Source: Anaerostipes sp. (GTDB taxonomy: Bacteria; Bacillota; Clostridia; Lachnospirales; Lachnospiraceae). Taken from it: DNA of 64,000 nt. Of this stretch, positions 2,542-46,739 are shown one piece after another; within the stretch, counting starts at the first letter, position 1, and every line of letters starts with the position of its first letter. The notes under the pieces were generated by a model. It was not told the DNA's origin, did no database searches, and saw nothing but the letters and a program-made list of their open reading frames with translations. The translations under genes and the position numbers were made by a program. The stretch covers positions 167,516-231,515 of the forward strand of contig JAQVEG010000001.1 in assembly GCA_028697725.1 (NCBI GenBank), given 5' to 3'.

Positions 2542-3456
2542 ATGGATTTATTAATGAATATGCAAAGTGCGATTGCACAAGGAACCTTATGGGGCATTAT
2601 GGCACTTGGTGTATATATTACATTTAGATTATTGGACATTGCTGATTTATCTTGTGAAGGTAGTTTTGCAATGGGCGGATGTGTAAGCTCAGTTATGATT
2701 ATTATGGGATTTAATCCATTTATAACTTTGATTTTTGCTACACTTGCAGGAATGCTTGCAGGATTTGTTACAGGACTTCTTCATACAAAGTTTATGATTC
2801 CAGCTATTTTATCAGGAATTTTAACGATGATAGCATTGTATTCGGTTAATATTCATATTATGGGACAGCCAAATACATCTCTACTTGGAGAAGATACAGT
2901 ATTTACATTGGTAATGAATCAATTTGGGTTAGATCAGACAGTGGCAACACTCCTTGTTGGTGGAGTTATTTGTGTCGTTGTAATTTTGGTTTTATATTGG
3001 TTTTTTGGAACAGAACTTGGCTGTACTCTTCGTGCAACTGGAAACAATGAATTTATGGTACGCGCCCTTGGTGGAAACACAGATACATCAAAGGTAATTG
3101 GATTATTACTTTCCAATGGATTAATTGCATTGTCAGGTGCTTTGGTAGGACAAAATCAAGGATATGGAGATGTAAAAATGGGAATCGGATCCATTGTAAT
3201 TGGTCTTGCATCCATTGTAATCGGTGAAGTTATTTTTGGAAATCGATTTAACTTTGTTTATGTATTGGTATCAGTTGTAGTTGGTTCTGTTGTATATCGT
3301 ATGATAATCTCTTTGGTTCTGCACTTTGGACTAAATACAGACGATATGAAGCTATTTACGGCAATTGTTGTTGCATTGGCATTGGGGATTCCAGCACTTC
3401 GTTCAAAGTATATGCAAAAGAGAATTCCGGCAAGTGAGGAGGATTCATCATGTTAA
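2542..3456 (+). CDS. ABC transporter permease
   Basis: Polytopic hydrophobic protein with DLSCEGSFAMGG and LRATGNN motifs; GGAG RBS; overlaps the ATPase start. Confidence 0.85.
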   Translation: MDLLMNMQSAIAQGTLWGIMALGVYITFRLLDIADLSCEGSFAMGGCVSSVMIIMGFNPFITLIFATLAGMLAGFVTGLLHTKFMIPAILSGILTMIALYSVNIHIMGQPNTSLLGEDTVFTLVMNQFGLDQTVATLLVGGVICVVVILVLYWFFGTELGCTLRATGNNEFMVRALGGNTDTSKVIGLLLSNGLIALSGALVGQNQGYGDVKMGIGSIVIGLASIVIGEVIFGNRFNFVYVLVSVVVGSVVYRMIISLVLHFGLNTDDMKLFTAIVVALALGIPALRSKYMQKRIPASEEDSSC

Positions 3457-4244
3457 GAATTAAAGATGTACATAAGACCTTTAATAAAGGCACTGCAAAT
3501 GAAAAAAAAGCATTGAATGGAGTTAATCTTCATTTGAATCCTGGTGATTTTGTAACGATCATCGGAGGAAATGGTGCAGGAAAATCTACAACTCTTAATA
3601 TGGTTGCTGGAGTTTATTCTATAGATAAAGGAACAATTTTACTTGATGATAAAGATATTTCAGATTGGCCAGAACACAAGAGAGCGAATATGCTTGGGAG
3701 AGTATTCCAAGACCCTATGATGGGAACGGCTGCAGGAATGCAGATTGAAGAAAACCTTGCGATGGCATATCGCAGAGGGAAGAGAAGAGGCCTTTCTTGG
3801 GGAATTACACATAAGGAAAAAGAACTTTACAAAGAGAGACTTGCCATGCTAGATCTTGGTCTAGAGGATCGAATGACATCTAAAGTTGGACTTCTTTCTG
3901 GAGGGCAGAGACAGGCACTTACTTTGCTTATGGCAACTCTTAGAAAACCTAGTTTGTTGTTATTAGACGAACATACTGCAGCTCTAGATCCAAAGACTGC
4001 AAAGAAGGTACTGGATTTAACAGAACTTATTGTAGACAGAGATCAATTGACGACAATGATGGTAACTCACAACATGAAAGACGCTATTAAAGTAGGGAAT
4101 CGTTTGATTATGATGAATGAGGGTCACATTATTTATGATGTGTCTGGAGAAGAAAAAAAGAATTTGAAAGTAGCTGATCTTCTTCAAAAATTTGAGGAAG
4201 CAAGTGGAGAAGATTTTTCTAATGACAGAATGTTGTTATCTTAA
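3450..4244 (+). CDS. ABC transporter ATP-binding protein
   Basis: Walker A GGNGAGKS, signature LSGGQ, Walker B LLLDE, H-loop VTH. Confidence 0.93.
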   Translation: MLRIKDVHKTFNKGTANEKKALNGVNLHLNPGDFVTIIGGNGAGKSTTLNMVAGVYSIDKGTILLDDKDISDWPEHKRANMLGRVFQDPMMGTAAGMQIEENLAMAYRRGKRRGLSWGITHKEKELYKERLAMLDLGLEDRMTSKVGLLSGGQRQALTLLMATLRKPSLLLLDEHTAALDPKTAKKVLDLTELIVDRDQLTTMMVTHNMKDAIKVGNRLIMMNEGHIIYDVSGEEKKNLKVADLLQKFEEASGEDFSNDRMLLS

Positions 4245-4250
4245 TACTGT

Positions 4251-4285
4251 CCCTGAAAGACAATTGTCTTTCAGGGGTATTTTTT
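4251..4285 (+). terminator. Rho-independent terminator
   Basis: CCCTGAAAGAC-aatt-GTCTTTCAGGG followed by a T-run. Confidence 0.85.
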
Positions 4286-4357
4286 CTGTCAAAATCGCAA
4301 AAAAGACTTGACTTTTTCTTGAAAACTTGGATAATAGATAAAGTAAGTTATTTATGA

Positions 4358-4429
4358 GGCCCCATGGTCAAGCGGTTAAGACGCGACCCTCTCAAGGTCG
4401 AATCACGAGTTCAATTCTCGTTGGGGTCA
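4358..4429 (+). tRNA. tRNA-Glu (anticodon CTC)
   Basis: Acceptor stem GGCCCCA/TGGGGTC, D-loop TGGTCAAGCGGTTAAGAC, anticodon arm CGACC-CTCTCAA-GGTCG, T-arm ACGAG-TTCAATT-CTCGT; CCA not encoded. Confidence 0.95.
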
Positions 4430-4430
4430 T

Positions 4431-4472
4431 AACTCTCAAGATAAGGTATTAAGCCAATCTTGAGAGTTTTTT
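4431..4472 (+). terminator. Terminator after tRNA-Glu
   Basis: AACTCTCAAGAT ... ATCTTGAGAGTT followed by TTTT. Confidence 0.75.
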
Positions 4473-4531
4473 ATTTCCCACAACATTAAAATATTTTTTC
4501 TCTAACGGATTTTTCTAACGTCTTTAGTCAA

Positions 4532-5722
4532 CTAAAGTGCTGTTTCATCTGAAAAAATGATATCTGCAAAGTCTGATATTGTCTTTTTCTCTTCCGAACC
4601 TCGAATATGAGCATAGTTGTGTAGGAATGTTTTTACGTCATTTCCCATGATGCTGGAAATGATTTTATCTTGTACACCACGAGAGTAGTTGTTTGTTCCA
4701 AATGTATGTCTGCAATTGTATAAAGGGATTTGAGGTATTCTATCTTTTGGCTTAACTGATTGGCTGTATCTTTCAATCGTTCTACGAAACATCTTTGAAT
4801 AATGGTTAGGGGTTACTGCACCTCCTTCTTCTGTAACAAAAAGAGTATCGGTTGTAAAAAAATCAGGGTATTGAAGCTGTATTTTCTTTTTCCATGTAAG
4901 CGAAGATTTAATTAAGTCGTATAGTGCATCAGGCAGGTAGATAGATCTATGTGACGCTGGTGTTTTTAAGTCAGTAAAATTACCTTGTTTGTCAATTCCT
5001 CTATTAAGCTCTAGTGTATGCAGTTCTTTGTTCAAATCTGTTTCAGCCAGTCCGCATGTTTCTCCTGGTCTTGTCCCCACTAATAAAGAAGTTGCAAACA
5101 TTGCATAATAATGTGATTCTTTTACGATGGGAGAGTTTAAAAAGGCTTGGATTTGCTCGTTAGTCCATGTTATTTTCTTCTTGTATGGCACGTGATTGCG
5201 TTTTATTCCAAGCATGGGGTTCTTGTTAGGCTCAATTACTTTAAGTTCATCTGACGCAAAATTAAAGATGTCACAGAGGATATTAATCATTTTGTTAATG
5301 GTCTCTGGGGAATATGGCTTTCCGTTTTTATTTGTTGTTTCCTGCATTAAGGTTTTAAATTTCAAAATATGAGAGGATTCTATTTTTCTAATGCCAACAT
5401 TCTCAAATACTTCTTTTATGTATCTGTTATAGTAATACTCGTATGTTACTAGGGTGCTGTTTCGATAAAATCCTTTTGAATAAGCGAGCCACTGGTCAGC
5501 AACTTCTCCAAAAAGCATTCCACGTTCTTTTGCGATTTTCTCTTTTTCTTTTCCATTTTTTAATTCCTCCATGATTTCAATTTCATCCTTGGATGCATTT
5601 ATGCGTTTTTCTTGTAATGGTCCAACGATACGTTTTTTTGTTCTGCCATCATAGACAGAAGCGTAGTACCTAGTAGTAATGCTGCCATCTTTTTTTCTGT
5701 AACTTTTCTTTTGTACACTCAT
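4532..5722 (-). CDS. Tyrosine recombinase / phage integrase
   Basis: N-terminal arm-binding-like region, SAM-like middle, catalytic GTRPGETCGL, KT..S.R.I, YNCRHTF, IMGN, YAH. Confidence 0.93.
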   Translation of the reverse strand: MSVQKKSYRKKDGSITTRYYASVYDGRTKKRIVGPLQEKRINASKDEIEIMEELKNGKEKEKIAKERGMLFGEVADQWLAYSKGFYRNSTLVTYEYYYNRYIKEVFENVGIRKIESSHILKFKTLMQETTNKNGKPYSPETINKMINILCDIFNFASDELKVIEPNKNPMLGIKRNHVPYKKKITWTNEQIQAFLNSPIVKESHYYAMFATSLLVGTRPGETCGLAETDLNKELHTLELNRGIDKQGNFTDLKTPASHRSIYLPDALYDLIKSSLTWKKKIQLQYPDFFTTDTLFVTEEGGAVTPNHYSKMFRRTIERYSQSVKPKDRIPQIPLYNCRHTFGTNNYSRGVQDKIISSIMGNDVKTFLHNYAHIRGSEEKKTISDFADIIFSDETAL

Positions 5723-5853
5723 AGAACATCATCCTTTCTAAAGAAGGGTATAAAAAATACACCCTACAATTATTGTTGGATGTATGATATAATTCTAATT
5801 GTTCAGAAGAGAATTATATTAACATCCGTGTTAATAGGTTTCTTTTGCGAAAG

Positions 5854-5881
5854 CAGTCACTTTGCCGAGTGGCTGTTTTTT
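5854..5881 (+). repeat. Cassette repeat copy A (hairpin part only)
   Basis: CAGTCAC-TTTGCCGA-GTGGCTG-TTTTTT; same hairpin as copies B-D. Confidence 0.8.
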
Positions 5882-5901
5882 AAATAGATTAAGTAAAAAA
5901 G

Positions 5902-5934
5902 TTGCATTTTTTTTTACTTAATGTATAATATAAT
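5902..5934 (+). promoter_or_regulatory. Sigma-A-type promoter facing the 3' end of the DUF3644 gene
   Basis: TTGCAT-16 bp-TATAAT, with a second overlapping TATAAT at 5929; no ORF follows on this strand. Confidence 0.65.
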
Positions 5935-5936
5935 TA

Positions 5937-6030
5937 TCAAAGATAACTTGTGAAGGAATAACACTGGGTCCCAGAATGGGGTAAGTACATTATGTACTGA
6001 GCATTCCTATGTGCCTGGGGTTATCTTTTT
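5937..6030 (+). ncRNA. Candidate structured small RNA (possible pseudoknot)
   Basis: Own promoter; closing stem AAAGATAAC/GTTATCTTT plus T-run; inner AGGAAT/ATTCCT stem; AGTACA-TTA-TGTACT hairpin; CCCAG can pair with CTGGG outside the inner stem. Confidence 0.6.
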
Positions 6031-6994
6031 ATTTGCTTCGTTTTAAACTCTCGACAAATTTGTCTGGAGTTTTTTCGATTTCTGATACAATAAATTCAAT
6101 AAATTGTTGTGAATATGTATATTGTTGCTGATTACCAATAATATGTTGATATGCATATTTGGGGTCGTTTTTTATATCGTAGAAATCAATAATAAGGTTT
6201 AATACATAACTATTAAAACCAGAGGAATATCCCAGCTTTATATGCTTTCTTTTTAATCTTTCTTGAATCGCAGTGACAACACTACTATGCGAATATTTAT
6301 GAGTATCTGATGGGTCTTTTACTTCTTTTAGAGTGGTAACCTTTGTATCTGAATCCTTAGAAATACACACTGCAAAATCAGCCTTGTCTCTCTTTTTTGT
6401 TATATATAGATTTTGTCTTATGTTAATTGCAAATTTATCAGAACGTATTTCATCACTTAAAACATCTATTTCATTAGATTGCTTAATGAACTTTTCGGCA
6501 ATTTCAGGACTGTATTTTAATTTGATTTCCTCGTTTGAGAGAGGTTCATATCTCGCTGATATTGTTAGAAAATTTTGTGCAATATATTTAGTAATATCTC
6601 TATTGTGAAATCTTTGAATTTCATTTACAAAGTTAAGAACGCAAGCTTGAAAAAGCGGCGCGTATTTCACCTCATAATCTTCAGTTATATAATGAGTACT
6701 AATATTTCTTAATTCTAATATTTTTTCAAGATTTAATCTGATCCTTGTGTTTTTATCAGAATATATTTTTTTGATTGAGTTTTCTACGCTTAAGGTCCTG
6801 TCAGGTTTATCAGAATAGTAGATGCTTTTTCCACGATTTATAAGCTCGGCTTTTAGCATGAGTTCCCAAGCGTTTACTATAAAGAAAGAAAATCCTTCAA
6901 TTCTGTATTTAATTGTAGGTTTATTGTATATCTCTAATCCTAAAATAAAAGCCTCTATACTTTTGTCAACTAATCTTTCCTTGATATTTTCCAA
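6029..6994 (-). CDS. DUF3644-like protein, predicted HEPN-superfamily RNase
   Basis: Likely TTG start at 6994 after an AAGGCGGG RBS. N-terminus (KSIEAFILGLEIYNKP..YR.EGFSFFIVNAWELMLKA) is typical of DUF3644; RNISTH = RxxxxH motif at 6709-6692. Confidence 0.75.
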   Translation of the reverse strand: MENIKERLVDKSIEAFILGLEIYNKPTIKYRIEGFSFFIVNAWELMLKAELINRGKSIYYSDKPDRTLSVENSIKKIYSDKNTRIRLNLEKILELRNISTHYITEDYEVKYAPLFQACVLNFVNEIQRFHNRDITKYIAQNFLTISARYEPLSNEEIKLKYSPEIAEKFIKQSNEIDVLSDEIRSDKFAINIRQNLYITKKRDKADFAVCISKDSDTKVTTLKEVKDPSDTHKYSHSSVVTAIQERLKRKHIKLGYSSGFNSYVLNLIIDFYDIKNDPKYAYQHIIGNQQQYTYSQQFIEFIVSEIEKTPDKFVESLKRSK

Positions 6995-7111
6995 GTTTAT
7001 CCCGCCTTTCTTTATGTTTAGTATTAATTTCTTCTTAAGTAAAAAATACAATATTCTATTAATGTAACTATATGCGGTAGTAGTAGTAGGGGTGTGAATC
7101 TAATTTTTCCT

Positions 7112-7175
7112 AAAAAAATACTCGCCATGTTACGCATATTACCCGAAAATAACAGAGGCTTGGCGAGTTCCGTTA
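7112..7175 (-). ncRNA. Candidate leader or antitoxin RNA resembling the abiF RNA motif
   Basis: Minus-strand promoter TTGATA-17-TATCCT (7209-7181); 8-bp stem ACTCGCCA/TGGCGAGT enclosing GCCTCT...ATGCGT; T7 tract follows. Confidence 0.5.
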
Positions 7176-7222
7176 CATATAGGATATGATATGCATTTTA
7201 AAATATCAAGATATTTTTGGTA

Positions 7223-8059
7223 TTATAGCTTTATAAGTGCATCGATTAATTCTTTTTCTAAATTCTTTTGTTGTGTTGCAGTTAATTGAGAAGAAGTTCT
7301 TACTATGATAGTTCCTATAACTTTATGCGAACCAGGATTCATCATACCGGTTGAATCAAAAGCAGCAAGGTACTTATTTCTGGTGTCTGCATTCTCTTTT
7401 GTTTTGTAGACTTCTATACAGCCACCGCCATCAGTTCCATTGCCTATAGAATCTTTCCCAGAAAGAAAAGAATGATCAACCTTAGGACTTGAAAAATAAA
7501 TTGCTGCAGTATAACCTCCAGTTTTGTTTAAACTACCATTTGGGTCATTTTTTTCTGTTACCGCTTTAACGTTATTAATGGATTTTATCTTTTTAAGTGA
7601 TGCTAAAACAAACTTTTGTGATGGATTAGTTACTTGCTCCAATTGCTGTATACTTTTGTCTAATTCCGTTGTGCTTTTTTGCAATTCAGATATCTGTTTA
7701 GAATAATCCACACCTTTTTCTAGAATTAAAGTTTCTTTTTTTACAACACTAATTTTTTTGGGGGCATCTGGTACATTGCGTCTAACTTTTTTTGCATTTT
7801 TAATTGAATCCTTTGCATTAGTTATTGTCGATTTTTCGAGTGGCTCTTTCTTTGAATTGATGAGTTTTTGTGCTTTGTTTATGTATCCGTTTAGCTCAAC
7901 ATTTTTTTTGTCAATTTTTTCAGATGCAGCGTTGTATTTGCTAACGGCAATATCATATGGTCTTTTATATGTAAAATACCATACTCCAACAGCTATAATC
8001 AAAACAACAGCAATTCCGATAATAGTAAAGTTTTTCTTTGATGTTCCAGTAGTTTTCAT
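7223..8059 (-). CDS. Membrane-anchored extracellular phage cargo protein (coiled coil plus conserved C-terminal domain)
   Basis: N-terminal TM helix (IIGIAVVLIIAVGVWYF), Lys-rich helical stalk, DPNGSLNK.GGY...GGGCIEVY domain; GGGAGG RBS. Confidence 0.7.
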   Translation of the reverse strand: MKTTGTSKKNFTIIGIAVVLIIAVGVWYFTYKRPYDIAVSKYNAASEKIDKKNVELNGYINKAQKLINSKKEPLEKSTITNAKDSIKNAKKVRRNVPDAPKKISVVKKETLILEKGVDYSKQISELQKSTTELDKSIQQLEQVTNPSQKFVLASLKKIKSINNVKAVTEKNDPNGSLNKTGGYTAAIYFSSPKVDHSFLSGKDSIGNGTDGGGCIEVYKTKENADTRNKYLAAFDSTGMMNPGSHKVIGTIIVRTSSQLTATQQKNLEKELIDALIKL

Positions 8060-8086
8060 AGTTTCCTCCCTTATTGTATATGTAAA

Positions 8087-8159
8087 TTTATTGTAACCTT
8101 AATTTAATCAGTTCTTTATCATATTCAATCAATAGTCACTTTGCAGAGTGTCTGTTTTT
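8087..8159. repeat. Cassette repeat copy B (73 bp)
   Basis: TTTATTGTAACCTTAATTTAATCAGTTCTTTATCATATTCAATCAATAGTCACTTTGCAGAGTGTCTGTTTTT; 2 mismatches to copy D. Confidence 0.92.
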
Positions 8160-8183
8160 TTTTGGATTTTAGTTTAAGAATAA

Positions 8184-8633
8184 TTAGCTTGCAGAATCCA
8201 TATATGCATCTTGAATTTTGCTAGCATATTTTTGATAAACATCTTGAATCTTTCCAGCCCAGTCTTCATAAGTTTCATATTTATCACCATTTTTTTGCAT
8301 TAACTCTGCCATTTCTCCAACTCCATCGTTGCATATTTCAGCAAGGTCACCGACTTTTTTGTTAGAGAGTTTTGCAAGTTTATTTACATCGCCAGTATAT
8401 TTTTTTGATTCTTTTTTGTATTCTTTTACAAGTTTTGGAGTGGCTTTTTTAATCTTTGCAGTATAATCTTTTAATATAGACTTGTAAGTTGTTTTTTCTG
8501 TTTCCTTTTTAATTTCCTTCTTTTCAGTTGTAACTTTTGTAGTTTCTTTTGAATCAGACGAACTACTTCCACAAGCCGTCATTGAAATTGCCATTAATGT
8601 TGCTAATCCTAATGCTAATACTTTTTTCCTCAT
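8184..8633 (-). CDS. Lipoprotein (phage cargo)
   Basis: Signal peptide II MRKKVLALGLATLMAISMTA-C with a Ser/Lys/Thr linker; AAGGAG RBS. Confidence 0.8.
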   Translation of the reverse strand: MRKKVLALGLATLMAISMTACGSSSSDSKETTKVTTEKKEIKKETEKTTYKSILKDYTAKIKKATPKLVKEYKKESKKYTGDVNKLAKLSNKKVGDLAEICNDGVGEMAELMQKNGDKYETYEDWAGKIQDVYQKYASKIQDAYMDSAS

Positions 8634-8647
8634 AATTCTTCTCCTTA

Positions 8648-8748
8648 TTGTAAAAACAGTTAATAAATAGTATAATGTTTACAGATATGGTGAGAAAGGG
8701 GAAAATTTTATCAAGCTATAACCGTCCAGGTGCAACTGGGTGGTTTTA
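8648..8748 (+). ncRNA. Candidate ~65-nt small RNA with its own promoter and terminator
   Basis: TTGTAA-17-TATAAT (8648-8676), then a 10-bp hairpin AACCGTCCAG-gtgcaa-CTGGGTGGTT plus TT; no credible ORF. Confidence 0.5.
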
Positions 8749-8876
8749 CTATTTGACCATTTTGTTGAGGTCATCAAGATGGTTTTTATGTAACTTTATA
8801 AAGGGGTAGATATCGACTCTTTAAAATTGGGTATCCAGTTCATTCATATTATTCAGATTTATACTTTTGAGTTGTT

Positions 8877-9155
8877 TTAGCAAAAAAATTTATTTCATTA
8901 AAGTAAGTCAACCATTTATCTACAACTTCGTTGTTTCGTGCTTCAATAATTCTCATAATGTTTCGAAGTGTTTTTACTTGGAATCTTCGAGTTATTATTG
9001 CAGAGTAAACACTTCCCAGCTTTTGTTATCCAAATTTTCGTAGCATTAGAGGTTGGTTTTCCTTTTGCGACATATACGTGAATTGGTTCAAGAGGATCAT
9101 TTTTATTTGACCAAAAATAAATCCAGTAAGAACCAATTTTAAAAATTTGAGGCAT
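8877..9155 (-). pseudogene. DUF4160-like (HicA/DhiT-related) gene with a frameshift
   Basis: MPQIFKIGSYWIYFWSN..DPLEPIHVYV. After IPSK the frame gives NTSKHYENY*; removing one A of the A5 run (8971-8975) restores TLRNIMRIIEARNNEVVDKWLTYFNEINFF. Confidence 0.65.
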
Positions 9156-9411
9156 TTTCAAAACCCACTTCTTTTGAAAATTCAATTATCAGATGTGCAG
9201 TACTCTCCAATATCTCTTTGAATTTCTCAATTTCAGCATTCGAATATCCATAGACGTTTTCCCATGTGTAATCTGGAAGATAACAGGACGCGTGGTGAAA
9301 TCCGTCTTTTTCATTAGGTGTTTCAATATATACTTTTACTTTATTATCTGGTAGCATTTCAGAATGTGTAATTTCTGTCTCATCCGTAAGTGTCATGAAT
9401 GGATACATCAT
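9139..9411 (-). CDS. Small acidic hypothetical protein overlapping the DUF4160 gene (putative partner or antitoxin)
   Basis: ATG at 9411 after an AAGGAGGG RBS; 90 aa; its 3' end overlaps the DUF4160 start. Confidence 0.7.
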   Translation of the reverse strand: MMYPFMTLTDETEITHSEMLPDNKVKVYIETPNEKDGFHHASCYLPDYTWENVYGYSNAEIEKFKEILESTAHLIIEFSKEVGFENASNF

Positions 9412-9473
9412 AATTAGTCCCTCCTTTATATAAATACAATATTTTATAGTTCTATTATAACCAAAATTCAAAA

Positions 9474-9523
9474 GTTTTTTATCATATTCAATTAATAGTC
9501 ACTTTGCAGAGTGACTGTTTTTT
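9474..9523. repeat. Cassette repeat copy C (about 50 bp core, diverged extension to 9454)
   Basis: GTTTTTTATCATATTCAATTAATAGTCACTTTGCAGAGTGACTGTTTTTT; upstream ATTATAACC..AATT.AA aligns with ATTGTAACC..AATT.AA of copies B and D. Confidence 0.88.
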
Positions 9524-9542
9524 GTTTGTGATATCACAATTA

Positions 9543-10247
9543 TCATTTCTTTTCTTCTTTTAAAGATTCTTGATATCCAGCAACAATTATACCTGCTGGC
9601 AATGCAACAATAGCAATTCCTGCAAAGGAAGAAAGCATACTTATGAATCGTCCAATATCAGATAATGGATAGATGTCTCCATAGCCAACAGTTGTTAGTG
9701 AAACAGTAGACCAATAGATTGCCTTGAAAAATGTTCCGAAAGTTTTGGGTTCTACTTGGAAAGCAATTAGAGCAGTTGTAAAAATGTAAATTACTGCAAG
9801 AGCAAAAACTGTAATTAGTTGGTCTTTTTCATGCTTAAAAACATTTACTATAATATGTATATTTTTAGAATATCTAATAGCTTTGAATAATCTAAATGTC
9901 CGACATAGTCTAAGCATCTTTAATGCTTTAAAAGCTGAATTTATAGGAATAAAACTCGGTATAATTGCAAGTAAATCGATAAGAGCTATAGGTTTGAAAG
10001 GATATAAAAAATAAGAAATTACTCCACGCTTTTTTTCTTCATCAGCAGTTATAATTCGCAAAAAATAGTCCACTATAAAAATTGAAACTGTAATTTTATC
10101 GAGTAACAAAAAGATATGTGATTGTTTATAAAAGCATAAAGGAATTATACTTAAAATAATCGTAATCATCATAATGATATCATATATCTTACTGAGAACA
10201 TCATCATCTTTTGCAACTTCTATTATTTGATATATTCTATTTATCAT
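9543..10247 (-). CDS. 6-TM potassium channel-like ion transporter (prophage cargo)
   Basis: Selectivity filter TTVGYGD, S4-like LKMLRLCRTFRLFKAIR, multiple TM helices. Confidence 0.88.
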   Translation of the reverse strand: MINRIYQIIEVAKDDDVLSKIYDIIMMITIILSIIPLCFYKQSHIFLLLDKITVSIFIVDYFLRIITADEEKKRGVISYFLYPFKPIALIDLLAIIPSFIPINSAFKALKMLRLCRTFRLFKAIRYSKNIHIIVNVFKHEKDQLITVFALAVIYIFTTALIAFQVEPKTFGTFFKAIYWSTVSLTTVGYGDIYPLSDIGRFISMLSSFAGIAIVALPAGIIVAGYQESLKEEKK

Positions 10248-10259
10248 TTTAGACCTCGT

Positions 10260-10332
10260 TTTATTGTAACCTTAATTTAATCAGTTTTTTATCATATTCA
10301 ATCAATAGTCACTTTGCAGAGTGGCTGTTTTT
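10260..10332. repeat. Cassette repeat copy D (73 bp)
   Basis: Near-identical to 8087-8159; lies between cI and the K+ channel gene. Confidence 0.92.
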
Positions 10333-10339
10333 AGGGTTT

Positions 10340-10732
10340 TTAATCCACCCCGCTCCTTTTCATGCGTATCAGCATGTCGTGTACCAGTTTTAAGTCCTCG
10401 GGTGATACGTCTTTGCCTGCATCAAATAGAAGTCGTAATTCTTTATTCTCAAATATCTCTTGTGCAATTTTTTTTGTTTCTTTGTTTAAGTAATATGTTG
10501 ATTGTTCTTGTTCTCCTTTATCTTCCATTAAGTCAGACCTATTTATAGAAAAATAATCACATATCATATCAATTTTTTTCATTCGTGGAGTTTTTTCTCC
10601 CCTGCACCAATTAGAAACTGTTGTTTGTGTGACACCTAAATAATCTGCCAAATCCGACTGATTTTTTCCATGAGTTTTTAGCAGCTCAGTAATATTTTTT
10701 GCAATTATTTTATTCAGTTCTTTTTCAGACAT
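10340..10732 (-). CDS. XRE-family HTH phage repressor (cI-like)
   Basis: HTH QSDLADYLGVTQTTVSNWCRGEKTP; sits at the far end of an int-linked module. Confidence 0.85.
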   Translation of the reverse strand: MSEKELNKIIAKNITELLKTHGKNQSDLADYLGVTQTTVSNWCRGEKTPRMKKIDMICDYFSINRSDLMEDKGEQEQSTYYLNKETKKIAQEIFENKELRLLFDAGKDVSPEDLKLVHDMLIRMKRSGVD

Positions 10733-10734
10733 TC

Positions 10735-10816
10735 ATATCACTTCCTTTTTTCTCTTATAATGTAATTATATAACAAAAGTTATAATGAATCAAGAAAATA
10801 TAACATTAAGTGATAT
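10735..10816. promoter_or_regulatory. Truncated phage genetic-switch region with operator-like palindromes
   Basis: TATAAC-AAAA-GTTATA (10769-10784), ATAACATTAAGTGATAT, and the inverted pair ATATCACTT / AAGTGATAT. Confidence 0.5.
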
Positions 10817-10931
10817 GCGATTATAAAGGCTACCTTGGAACTAGAAATGTGACTGAAACCATAGATTATATTAATAAAATCAAGTATAATGGAGAAAAGT
10901 GGTTGCTTGATGGCTTTATAAAAGGTGTTGA

Positions 10932-11151
10932 TATGATGTTAAATATGAGAGAAAAAGATATAAATTTTATTCAAAATAATTTGGATAATGCTGAAAAGCT
11001 TCTAGCTACAAAAGAAGTTAATGATATATTGGATGCTTTGTATGATTGGATTGAAGACAATGGTTATTCTGCTGAAAGCGAATACCTTGAATACAATGAT
11101 TTGGGTCGAGAGGCTCAAGATGTATATGACAGTGTGTATGCTAGAAATTAA
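10932..11151 (+). CDS. Small acidic phage-type hypothetical protein
   Basis: Probable ATG near 10932 after AAAGGTG, inside ORF 10810-11151; acidic helical sequence; followed by a terminator-like hairpin at about 11203-11235. Start uncertain. Confidence 0.5.
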
Positions 11152-11335
11152 TGAAAAAATACAATGCAGTAAAAAGAATTAAAGAAGTAACATCTGGGTT
11201 ATAAACCACTGGCAGACAGTTGTCGGTGGTATTTTTATACGCATTTTTAAGAAAGGAGCAGTTAAAGGGGAGTTTTTTGCTGGCACACCAGTGTCTCTAT
11301 GCTATAATAATTATAGGAGAAAGAGGAGGAATAAA

Positions 11336-41051: not shown

Positions 41052-41102
41052 AAGTTGATTTCAAATAAGCAAACAAGTATAATGATAAACGGTAATTATT
41101 AA

Positions 41103-41186
41103 AAAGGGGAGTCCACCAAGTGGGCTGAGAGTAAGCGAGAAGCTTTGACCCGAAACCTGAATTGGATCATGCCAACGTAGGGATAT
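41103..41186 (+). ncRNA. TPP riboswitch (upstream of thiD-cytX)
   Basis: GGGGAG...GCTGAGAG...GACCCG-AACCTGA-TTGGATCATGCCAACGTAGGGA; terminator at about 41200-41237. Confidence 0.92.
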
Positions 41187-41311
41187 ATACGAAGTGTAAG
41201 CTGCGCAGATATCTTTACGATGTCTGCACTTTTTTTAAGTGTCAATTCAGGCAGCGGTTTTTGGGGGCACCACCTAAATCGCTTAACAAAATAGTGCAGG
41301 AGGATTTTATA

Positions 41312-46347: not shown

Positions 46348-46460
46348 TCCTACCTCATTTCGTGCAGTTTCATCGTTATCCCTTAGAACAAAGTATAACA
46401 TAATTTTATAAGGTGTTGTCAAAAAACACTCTATATGTTAAAATAATTTTCGTAAAAGAA

Positions 46461-46543
46461 ACTGGGGAGCTTGGAAAACCGGCTGAGAGGAAGTTTAAAC
46501 TTCGACCCTTATACCTGATGCGGATAATGCCGACGTAGGAAGA
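46461..46543 (+). ncRNA. TPP riboswitch (upstream of thiSFGH)
   Basis: CTGGGGAG...GCTGAGAGG...GACCCTT-ACCTGATGCGGATAATGCCGACGTAGGAAG; terminator at about 46570-46607. Confidence 0.92.
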
Positions 46544-46739
46544 ATTCTAGAAAGTTTATAGAATATTTCAAAAGAAGCATTTTCAAAAGAGAATGTTTCT
46601 TTTTTTAGGAATTCTTTGAAATAACATCAGGAGCAATTACATAAAGTAGAAGTTGAGAGTGCATGAAAGCAGCATGAAGGGGGACACCACCACGGGTGTC
46701 ACTTTTCTTGTTGCTTTTTTTTTGAAAAGAGGTGAAATT

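Follow-up and report, generated by a model that had tools for sequence, protein, structure and literature searches.

What are the short repeats that separate the accessory genes of a prophage lysogeny module, and what do they do? We examined this question in a window of 64,000 nt from Anaerostipes sp. (assembly GCA_028697725.1, 2.9 Mb in all; contig JAQVEG010000001.1, positions 167,516-231,515), in which four copies of one element, A to D, punctuate the cargo genes between an integrase and a repressor. A preliminary description of this locus had read B, C and D as insulator-plus-promoter modules, each placed directly ahead of a cargo gene, and had proposed that the copies act as homology anchors for cassette exchange in an integron-like array. 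Our analysis keeps the idea of exchange and gives the repeat a different origin: it is probably a composite linker made of the two fused borders of a prophage cargo slot, namely the terminator of a small RNA and the 3' end of an immA gene, stacked by recombination. Below, G000 denotes the present genome, C72 the contig of G000 that carries a second prophage, and G003 a sister species.

Anatomy and distribution of the repeat

The anatomy of the repeat can be read directly from the window. Copies B (8087-8159) and D (10260-10332) are 73 nt long with 2 mismatches (97% identity) and are spaced 2173 bp apart, as first described. Copy C had been described as a core of about 50 bp, but it proved to be a full-length 73-nt copy (9450-9522), diverged to 78% identity with B. 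A hairpin with its T-run forms a 27-nt family at 5855-5881 (copy A), 8134-8160, 9497-9523 and 10307-10333, and copy A consists of the hairpin only. On the minus strand, the left part of B and D carries a TACAAT box (ATTGTA on the plus strand, 8090-8095 and 10263-10268), and that of C a TATAAT box (plus-strand ATTATA, 9454-9459). Allowing up to three mismatches, we found the hairpin 20-mer AGTCACTTTGCAGAGTGACT at four sites in the 64 kb where 0.01 are expected by chance, a count reached by none of 100 shuffled sequences; the left part of the 73-mer occurs three times in the window against 0 expected. That four copies separate the cargo genes is thus borne out.

The whole assembly holds exactly one further hairpin, at C72:7909-7929 in the second prophage, and all five hairpins of the genome lie within a prophage lysogeny module. 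With just one extra copy, the element is not a genome-wide dispersed repeat, which removes a concern raised at the outset. Within the genus, the hairpin and the fused linkers occur only in G000 and G003, where the counterpart of linker C, C', is 91% identical to it. The exact hairpin pattern had no match in IMG/VR or in the JGI metagenomes, and its only five matches among 185,000 species representatives are chance hits in unrelated phyla; the exact pattern of the junction between hairpin and left half had none in the viral or the JGI metagenome sequences. No hairpin turned up when 400 other genera of the family were scanned with mismatches allowed, and the repeats have no match in a phage GenBank collection. 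The proposed variety of cargo between conserved repeats is seen only in part: different cargo does stand beside the hairpin in G003 and C72, but the hairpin is limited to two sister species.

A second strain (GCA_050950685.1) is 99.75% identical to the window over 9138 bp, with the four hairpins unchanged. Both this strain and a JGI contig have the gene order of the window, without a deletion between B and D.

The left half of the linkers

When compared with other species of the genus, the 73-mer matches over its left 40 nt only, at the 3' ends of intact M78 peptidase genes (E values of 5e-7 and 2e-6). The intact gene, of the ImmA/IrrE type (PF06114 in G003), sits a short way downstream of the repressor and runs right up to the ribosome-binding site (RBS) of a lipoprotein gene. 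In our alignment A1, homology runs from TTGAATATGAT through the stop codon; the translation from B and D is LIEYDK(K/E)LIKLRLQ-stop, compared with ...LGY(D/N)(E/K)(E/K)LIKL(R/K)LK-stop in the intact genes. The immA/IrrE (Peptidase_M78) ancestry of the left half is therefore seen directly, as in-frame homology to the 3' coding end that finishes at the stop codon, and we take the left half of B, C and D to be a fossil of about the last 14 codons of the gene. In B it occupies 8087-8133 on the minus strand and reads LIEYDKELIKLRLQ-stop; in C it is more diverged (9450-9496, with TATAAT at 9459-9454 on the minus strand); and in D it spans 10260-10306 and reads LIEYDKKLIKLRLQ-stop, the linker itself beginning 7 nt past the stop codon of the repressor. 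The similarity between B and D ends right after the fossil stop codon. Intact immA was found neither in the island within the window nor in C72.

On this reading, the TACAAT box is the Leu-Gln codon pair that precedes the stop codon of the fossil. The box itself is present as first described, and the role then assigned to it brings up an alternative, that the linkers are functional cassettes comparable to the promoter-early stem-loops (PeSLs) of T4-like phages, each an independent unit in which the hairpin ends the upstream cargo gene and TA(C/T)AAT is the promoter of the next. The order of hairpin, -10-like box, RBS and gene in three copies speaks for such cassettes, and the PeSL analogy holds at the level of layout (PMC2839356). 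Transcription from the box in B would give a leader of about 24 nt. Copy C, with a perfect TATAAT, a leader of about 45 nt and conservation in G003, keeps the idea alive for that copy. Promoter function is nevertheless poorly matched by the surroundings of the boxes: none of the three has an acceptable -35 or TG element at the right spacing (16-18 nt upstream), and a promoter scan lists none of them. The box in D ends 5 nt ahead of the Shine-Dalgarno sequence of the channel gene, so a transcript begun there would be too short upstream to carry that sequence. Finally, the intact immA genes lack a TA(C/T)AAT box and lie directly against the cargo RBS, in an operon-like layout.

The hairpin as a plus-strand terminator

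The second half of the cassette alternative concerns the direction in which the hairpin works. We folded all 8 known hairpins (four from the window, one from C72 and three from G003) as RNA of both strands. The plus-strand RNA is the more stable in every one, at -7.2 to -18.9 kcal/mol compared with -1.7 to -14.1 kcal/mol for the minus strand, where the fold is weaker because two G.U pairs turn into A.C. Plus-strand stems reach 8-11 pairs and are usually closed by a tetraloop; the stem of C' in G003 is degenerate. Every copy has T5-T9 on its plus side, while minus-strand tails hold at most 5 T in 8. Copy A (5855-5881, plus strand) is the hairpin AGTCAC-TTTGCCGA-GTGGCT followed by T6, and its fold reaches -16.7 kcal/mol in plus-strand RNA and -6.0 in minus-strand RNA; its G003 counterpart A' has a compensatory T-to-C change. 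In linker B the hairpin has one U.U mismatch and T9 (8134-8163), in C it is perfect with T6 (9497-9523), and in D it is followed by T5 (10307-10332), all on the plus strand. The plus-strand folds of these three lie between -8.4 and -15.1 kcal/mol. In the direction of the genes the same hairpins fold weakly, at -2.8, -8.2 and -3.1 kcal/mol for B, C and D, and are followed by ATTGATTG, without a U-run. A terminator scan lists copy C.

A stem-loop with a U-run on the plus strand, as expected of an intrinsic terminator, is thus predicted for 8/8 copies. Because the fold is strand-biased and the T-run lies on the plus side, the hairpin appears to have evolved as an RNA terminator of transcription that opposes the cargo genes. 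The preliminary description was right about the hairpin and the T-run, but the T-run follows on the plus strand only, and this takes support from the proposed insulation: according to the predicted folds, the hairpins would hardly insulate the cargo genes from one another. No convincing plus-strand promoter was found just upstream of B, C or D that would give these copies an antisense RNA of their own. An insulator-plus-promoter design of the three linkers is not supported by this evidence, and we regard their interpretation as PeSL-like regulatory cassettes as improbable.

A small-RNA gene next to the integrase

Copy A stands where a terminator is expected. It closes a small-RNA gene on the plus strand (5783-5881), with an extended -10 element TATGATATAAT at 5783-5793, a transcript of about 5798-5881, a first stem-loop at 5819-5834 and hairpin A at its end. 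The extended -10 promoter at 5783-5793 is conserved as GGATGTATGATATAAT, with the terminator about 85 nt downstream. Over the 140 bp upstream of the integrase, four elements of G000, together with G003, are 87-96% identical, and the small-RNA block precedes three kinds of recombinase: the tyrosine integrase, an unrelated tyrosine integrase and a serine recombinase. Of 20 species of the genus, 13 have the block, which also occurs in metagenomic relatives; in G000 it is also present on contigs C72, C34 and C78. Most species have another hairpin at the terminator position (CCGYC...GRCGG, or others), again with a plus-strand T-run. An RNAalifold consensus of 15 sequences consists of a 5' stem-loop and the terminator, with compensatory changes in six pairs. 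Copy A thus appears to terminate a small RNA of about 85 nt that is conserved in the genus. A search of Rfam returned no family at the gathering score, and a match to RsaF was rejected (24 bits against a cut-off of 60).

On the opposite strand, a conserved hairpin with a U-run (5746-5764, alignments A2 and A3) stands in the integrase leader directly before the integrase RBS and resembles an attenuator terminator. A mirror-image TGATATAAT-like box is conserved on the minus strand, which together with this hairpin suggests face-to-face promoters and an attenuator. Countertranscript-driven attenuation cassettes of this general kind are found in the Gram-positive plasmids pT181 and pIP501. The likeness is that the small RNA of copy A faces an integrase leader with a terminator-like hairpin before the RBS; the differences are that the comparison concerns copy A only, that regulation of the integrase is what we would expect from the arrangement, and that the leader promoter is placed tentatively.

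Palindromes can also be protein sites, and AGTCAC-N8-GTGACT might be a repressor operator or an attC-like recombination site: it is a near-perfect 6-8-6 inverted repeat with four to five copies in the lysogeny module, beside an integrase and a repressor. The repressor/cro promoter region, however, does not contain the motif, and the elements that share it have repressors only 35% identical and either unrelated tyrosine integrases or a serine recombinase. Other elements carry unrelated T-run hairpins at the same position, so that structure is kept and sequence is not, and on one of the strands the variation is compatible with G.U pairing. An IntI-type integrase, an attI site and RYYYAAC/GTTRRRY cores are all missing. 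Taken together, these observations make a protein site highly improbable.

The cargo slot and the exchange of cassettes

In 12 further elements of the genus, the minus-strand gene whose 3' end adjoins the small-RNA terminator differs from one element to the next. Such genes encode lipoproteins of 138, 146 and 337 aa, a DUF4160-like protein, secreted or membrane proteins and others, and immA is often found just upstream of them. The usual layout thus appears to be repressor, immA, one variable cargo gene, small-RNA terminator, small RNA and integrase.

Comparison with G003 shows how the window departs from it. Positions 3385-4045 of G003:C58 match 8089-8754 of the window (the lipoprotein cassette with B) at 94%, and positions 3955-4633 match 8865-9543 (the DUF4160 cassette with C) at 95%; the two blocks overlap in the linker only. 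The order in G003 is lipoprotein, linker, DUF4160 pair, hairpin, small RNA, integrase, while in the window the lipoprotein has the DUF4160 pair upstream of it and a 278-aa gene after it. In the same way, what comes after the 3' end of a 200-aa lipoprotein gene and its hairpin differs: the small RNA and integrase in C72, another cassette in G003. Across the 8 hairpins of the three elements, 6 right flanks are combined with 4 left flanks, and the loop variant (GCCGAG or GCAGAG) goes along with the left flank. Homology breakpoints are thus observed inside the repeat, which supports cassette shuffling: the repeats mark cassette exchange and, judging from these alignments, probably mediate it. The original proposal that they are homology anchors for swapping cassettes is upheld by the same hairpin having different neighbours in G003 and C72, within a scope of two closely related species, where alone exchange was seen.

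Exchange may also have reached into a gene. The 149-aa lipoprotein of the window (8184-8633) and the 200-aa lipoprotein (L021 7289-7891) share a 23-aa signal peptide (78%), the 5' region and the 3' untranslated end, and their mature parts are unrelated. Because only the ends are common, exchange has apparently taken place inside a gene, a further sign that exchange runs between ends that are conserved.

Origin of the linkers

In all four fused linkers (B, C, D and C' of G003) the fusion point is the same, at the base of the stem, and the joint therefore seems to have arisen once and then propagated. From these observations we infer a recombination route, co-transcription of the cassettes and a present-day function for the linkers. 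The slot would be bounded on one side by the immA stop codon and on the other by the small-RNA terminator, with the cargo gene ending head-on against the terminator of a plus-strand small RNA. Copy A would be this terminator in its native place, and B, C and D the terminator joined at the stem base to the last 14 or so codons of immA. Such a joint is what a tandem duplication of a unit of immA 3' end, cargo and terminator would be expected to leave; alternatively, the unit may have been excised as a circle and re-inserted by homologous recombination. The joint of about 73 bp would then have spread and served as the place at which cassettes were added and rearranged. Transcription from the repressor promoter probably reads through the genes behind B, C and D, as it normally would for cargo that follows immA. 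The hairpins would stop antisense transcription from the plus strand only, and otherwise would be mainly homology patches and breakpoints.

Several points weigh against this account. The linkers are limited to two close species with flanks about 94% identical, and the shuffling could reflect a handful of events. The array does not vary among three assemblies, none with the B/D deletion, and recombination that continues today appears unsupported. Copy B, with its mismatch, and the degenerate C' are decaying, and some copies may be functionless. Lastly, the perfect TATAAT of C has no counterpart in intact immA, and there the fossil could have become a promoter.

The first three of these points would also be expected if the array were local debris, left by a few tandem duplications and deletions in a decaying prophage without function or exchange, the layouts in G003 and C72 then arising from illegitimate events. 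That the island is a remnant containing a gene fragment (8755-8850) fits such a history as well. What it leaves unexplained is the number of events needed: the flank combinations described above require at least four independent hairpin-sharing junctions, in three elements with unrelated recombinases at different loci. B and D have stayed 97% identical between unrelated flanks, and one fusion point in four linkers indicates that the joint was propagated as a unit. We therefore doubt that debris accounts for the array.

The fused slot borders thus remain our preferred and probable explanation. A stronger form of it, in which the fused linker is an active, self-propagating recombination module, is rather unlikely, and we offer it tentatively. 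An excised circle with one linker would re-insert by homologous recombination at the immA 3' ends or terminators of related phages, and orphan terminators would shield the repressor operon from antisense transcription.

The island and its genes

Chromosomal homology to G003 (about 94% identity) stops at window position 4476 and picks up again at about 11310. By this gap, the mobile DNA amounts to only about 6.8 kb, a lysogeny module without lytic genes and so a prophage remnant. The lysogeny setting of the preliminary description is therefore confirmed, but the module is all that remains of the prophage. Its calls of lipoprotein, ion channel, DUF4160 protein and repressor also agree with profile matches.

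The integration target is a tRNA-Glu(CTC) gene on the plus strand (4358-4429), next to the integrase; the island begins at about 4477. The segment 4387-4476 is duplicated on contig C1, an att-type duplication, and a search found no attR copy of the tRNA end within the window, which fits a truncated remnant. In GCA_050950685.1 (L087), an element of the IS91 family (Y2 transposase) and the terminal part of a second prophage sit between tRNA-Glu and the island, and contig C1 of G000 (C1:42-132) opens with another copy of the 3' end of the tRNA gene and 47 nt beyond it, beside an apparent, unannotated recombinase gene. On the basis of these insertions and the tRNA copy, tRNA-Glu appears to be a site of tandem insertions.

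Every gene from 4532 to 10732 lies on the minus strand, and the array reads repressor, D, channel, C, DUF4160 pair, lipoprotein, B, 278-aa gene, PDC-S19, A, small RNA, integrase. The repressor is of the CI/Cro type with a helix-turn-helix (HTH) domain (10340-10732), and its promoter (TTGATT-17-TATAAT, 10793-10765) likely drives the whole leftward operon. Behind D is a 234-aa ion-channel protein (9543-10247; Ion_trans, Ion_trans_2). The gene is intact in the window; in two other island assemblies (L087 and L088) it is frameshifted and split in two (197 + 58 aa, or 197 + 31 aa). Behind C are a 90-aa protein (9139-9411) and the DUF4160 protein (8943-9185), together spanning 8943-9411.

Between this pair and the lipoprotein, a non-coding fragment (8755-8850) resembles the interior of a KilA-N gene in the C72 prophage, a likeness judged by eye and unscored. 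We take it to be junction debris at the point where the DUF4160 cassette lost a hairpin that is present in G003. The 149-aa lipoprotein has its own promoter-like site (8696-8669) and, back to back with this promoter, a plus-strand mini-unit (8648-8745) with a TTGTAA-17-TATAAT promoter and a CCGTCCAG...CTGGGTGG terminator. The -10 box of the mini-unit overlaps that of the lipoprotein promoter on the opposite strand, and its terminator lies about 60 nt downstream. The mini-unit is kept in C72 and G003, with a G.U to G-C change, and its terminator resembles the common terminator of the integrase-linked small RNA.

Directly behind B is a 278-aa protein without a family match (7223-8059). Exact-protein look-ups returned strain-level copies of this protein and no match for the channel, the lipoprotein or the 90-aa protein. 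The 278-aa gene is followed by a DUF3644/EC042_2821 nuclease-like protein (6029-7051), the candidate defence gene PDC-S19 of PADLOC, a unit with its own promoter-like site (7209-7181) and a convergent RNA (5902-6030). At the DNA level this unit (5902-7051) is 72-83% identical to Staphylococcus and Streptococcus phages and a streptococcal satellite, and it appears to be a cross-genus mobile unit; the DUF3644 gene with its convergent RNA was the only part to be matched in the phage GenBank collection. At the left end of the island is the tyrosine integrase (396 aa, 4532-5722; PF00589, PF14659). At the right end, the last phage-derived piece (10810-11300, plus strand) holds a 113-aa ORF (open reading frame) and a terminator (11205-11230), beyond which lie a Y-family polymerase, a C39-like peptidase and PPDK. 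The chromosomal part of the window also carries two thiamine pyrophosphate (TPP) riboswitches above the Rfam gathering score (41095-41200 and 46453-46558).

Relation to known systems

Arrays of promoter-less cassettes in one orientation, with imperfect palindromes between them and an integrase gene adjacent, invite comparison with integrons. The likeness called integron-like at the outset is one of layout only. The array contains no IntI-type integrase, attI site or Pc promoter, and its integrase is phage-type and lies beside tRNA-Glu. On reading the sequence, we found no attC cores and no extrahelical-base architecture; the hairpin consists of a plain stem, at most 8-11 pairs long, a tetraloop and a T-run. 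One hairpin serves unrelated recombinases in elements with different repressors, and recombination of the homologous or illegitimate kind accounts best for the joints.

The PeSLs of T4-like phages combine a strong sigma-70 promoter with a terminator in the direction of the genes, both shown experimentally (Arbiol et al. 2010, PMC2839356; Comeau et al. 2014, PMC4122927). Like PeSLs, the linkers are short composite intergenic repeats with a terminator-type stem-loop between non-essential cargo genes; indels and replacements that distinguish related genomes end within the repeats, and cargo circles are possible in principle. Unlike PeSLs, their terminator points against the genes, with predicted gene-direction folds of only -2.8 to -8.2 kcal/mol and no U-run, and their 'promoter' half derives from the end of a fossil gene, its promoter features being weak. 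Their host is a remnant of a temperate Firmicute phage and not a lytic myovirus, and they number 4-8 copies in two species. The resemblance first suggested therefore holds for the endpoints and fails for the sense-direction terminator: the element appears to act like a PeSL as a homology patch, while apparently lacking the strong promoter and, by the predicted folds, the terminator in the direction of the genes.

Morons and lysogeny slots likewise hold accessory genes between repressor and integrase that vary among related prophages (Cumby et al. 2012, PMC3594210). The cargo in the window (a defence candidate, lipoproteins and a channel) may, by analogy, be expressed from the prophage in the moron sense. 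The original definition of the moron is reportedly due to Juhala and Hendrix. Own promoter-like sites, a feature of morons, are found here at the lipoprotein and PDC-S19 units only; the other three cassettes lack a convincing promoter and carry instead a copy of the 3' end of an upstream gene. The array also differs in that the slot borders themselves have been duplicated into it. As a structural account this is well supported, while what we say of function is our interpretation of the sequence.

Implications

T4-like phages and morons already provide examples of exchange at conserved linkers that contain a terminator, and the scope here is two sister species. For annotation, the locus is a reason for caution: intergenic repeats of prophages that look regulatory can be fossils, and the last codons of a gene can mimic a -10 box. 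The small-RNA gene that stands before integrases of varied types in phages of gut Lachnospiraceae is the broader feature and the easier one to test. If the linker were indeed an active module, lysogeny modules would accumulate arrays of defence and exclusion genes, and the linker would be a temperate Gram-positive counterpart of the T4 PeSL mini-circles, made of a recycled gene end and a small-RNA terminator. Our analysis gives a sequence-level account of how a single temperate-phage cargo slot may have become a multi-gene array of defence and exclusion candidates, the fused borders of the slot then serving as a portable homology patch.

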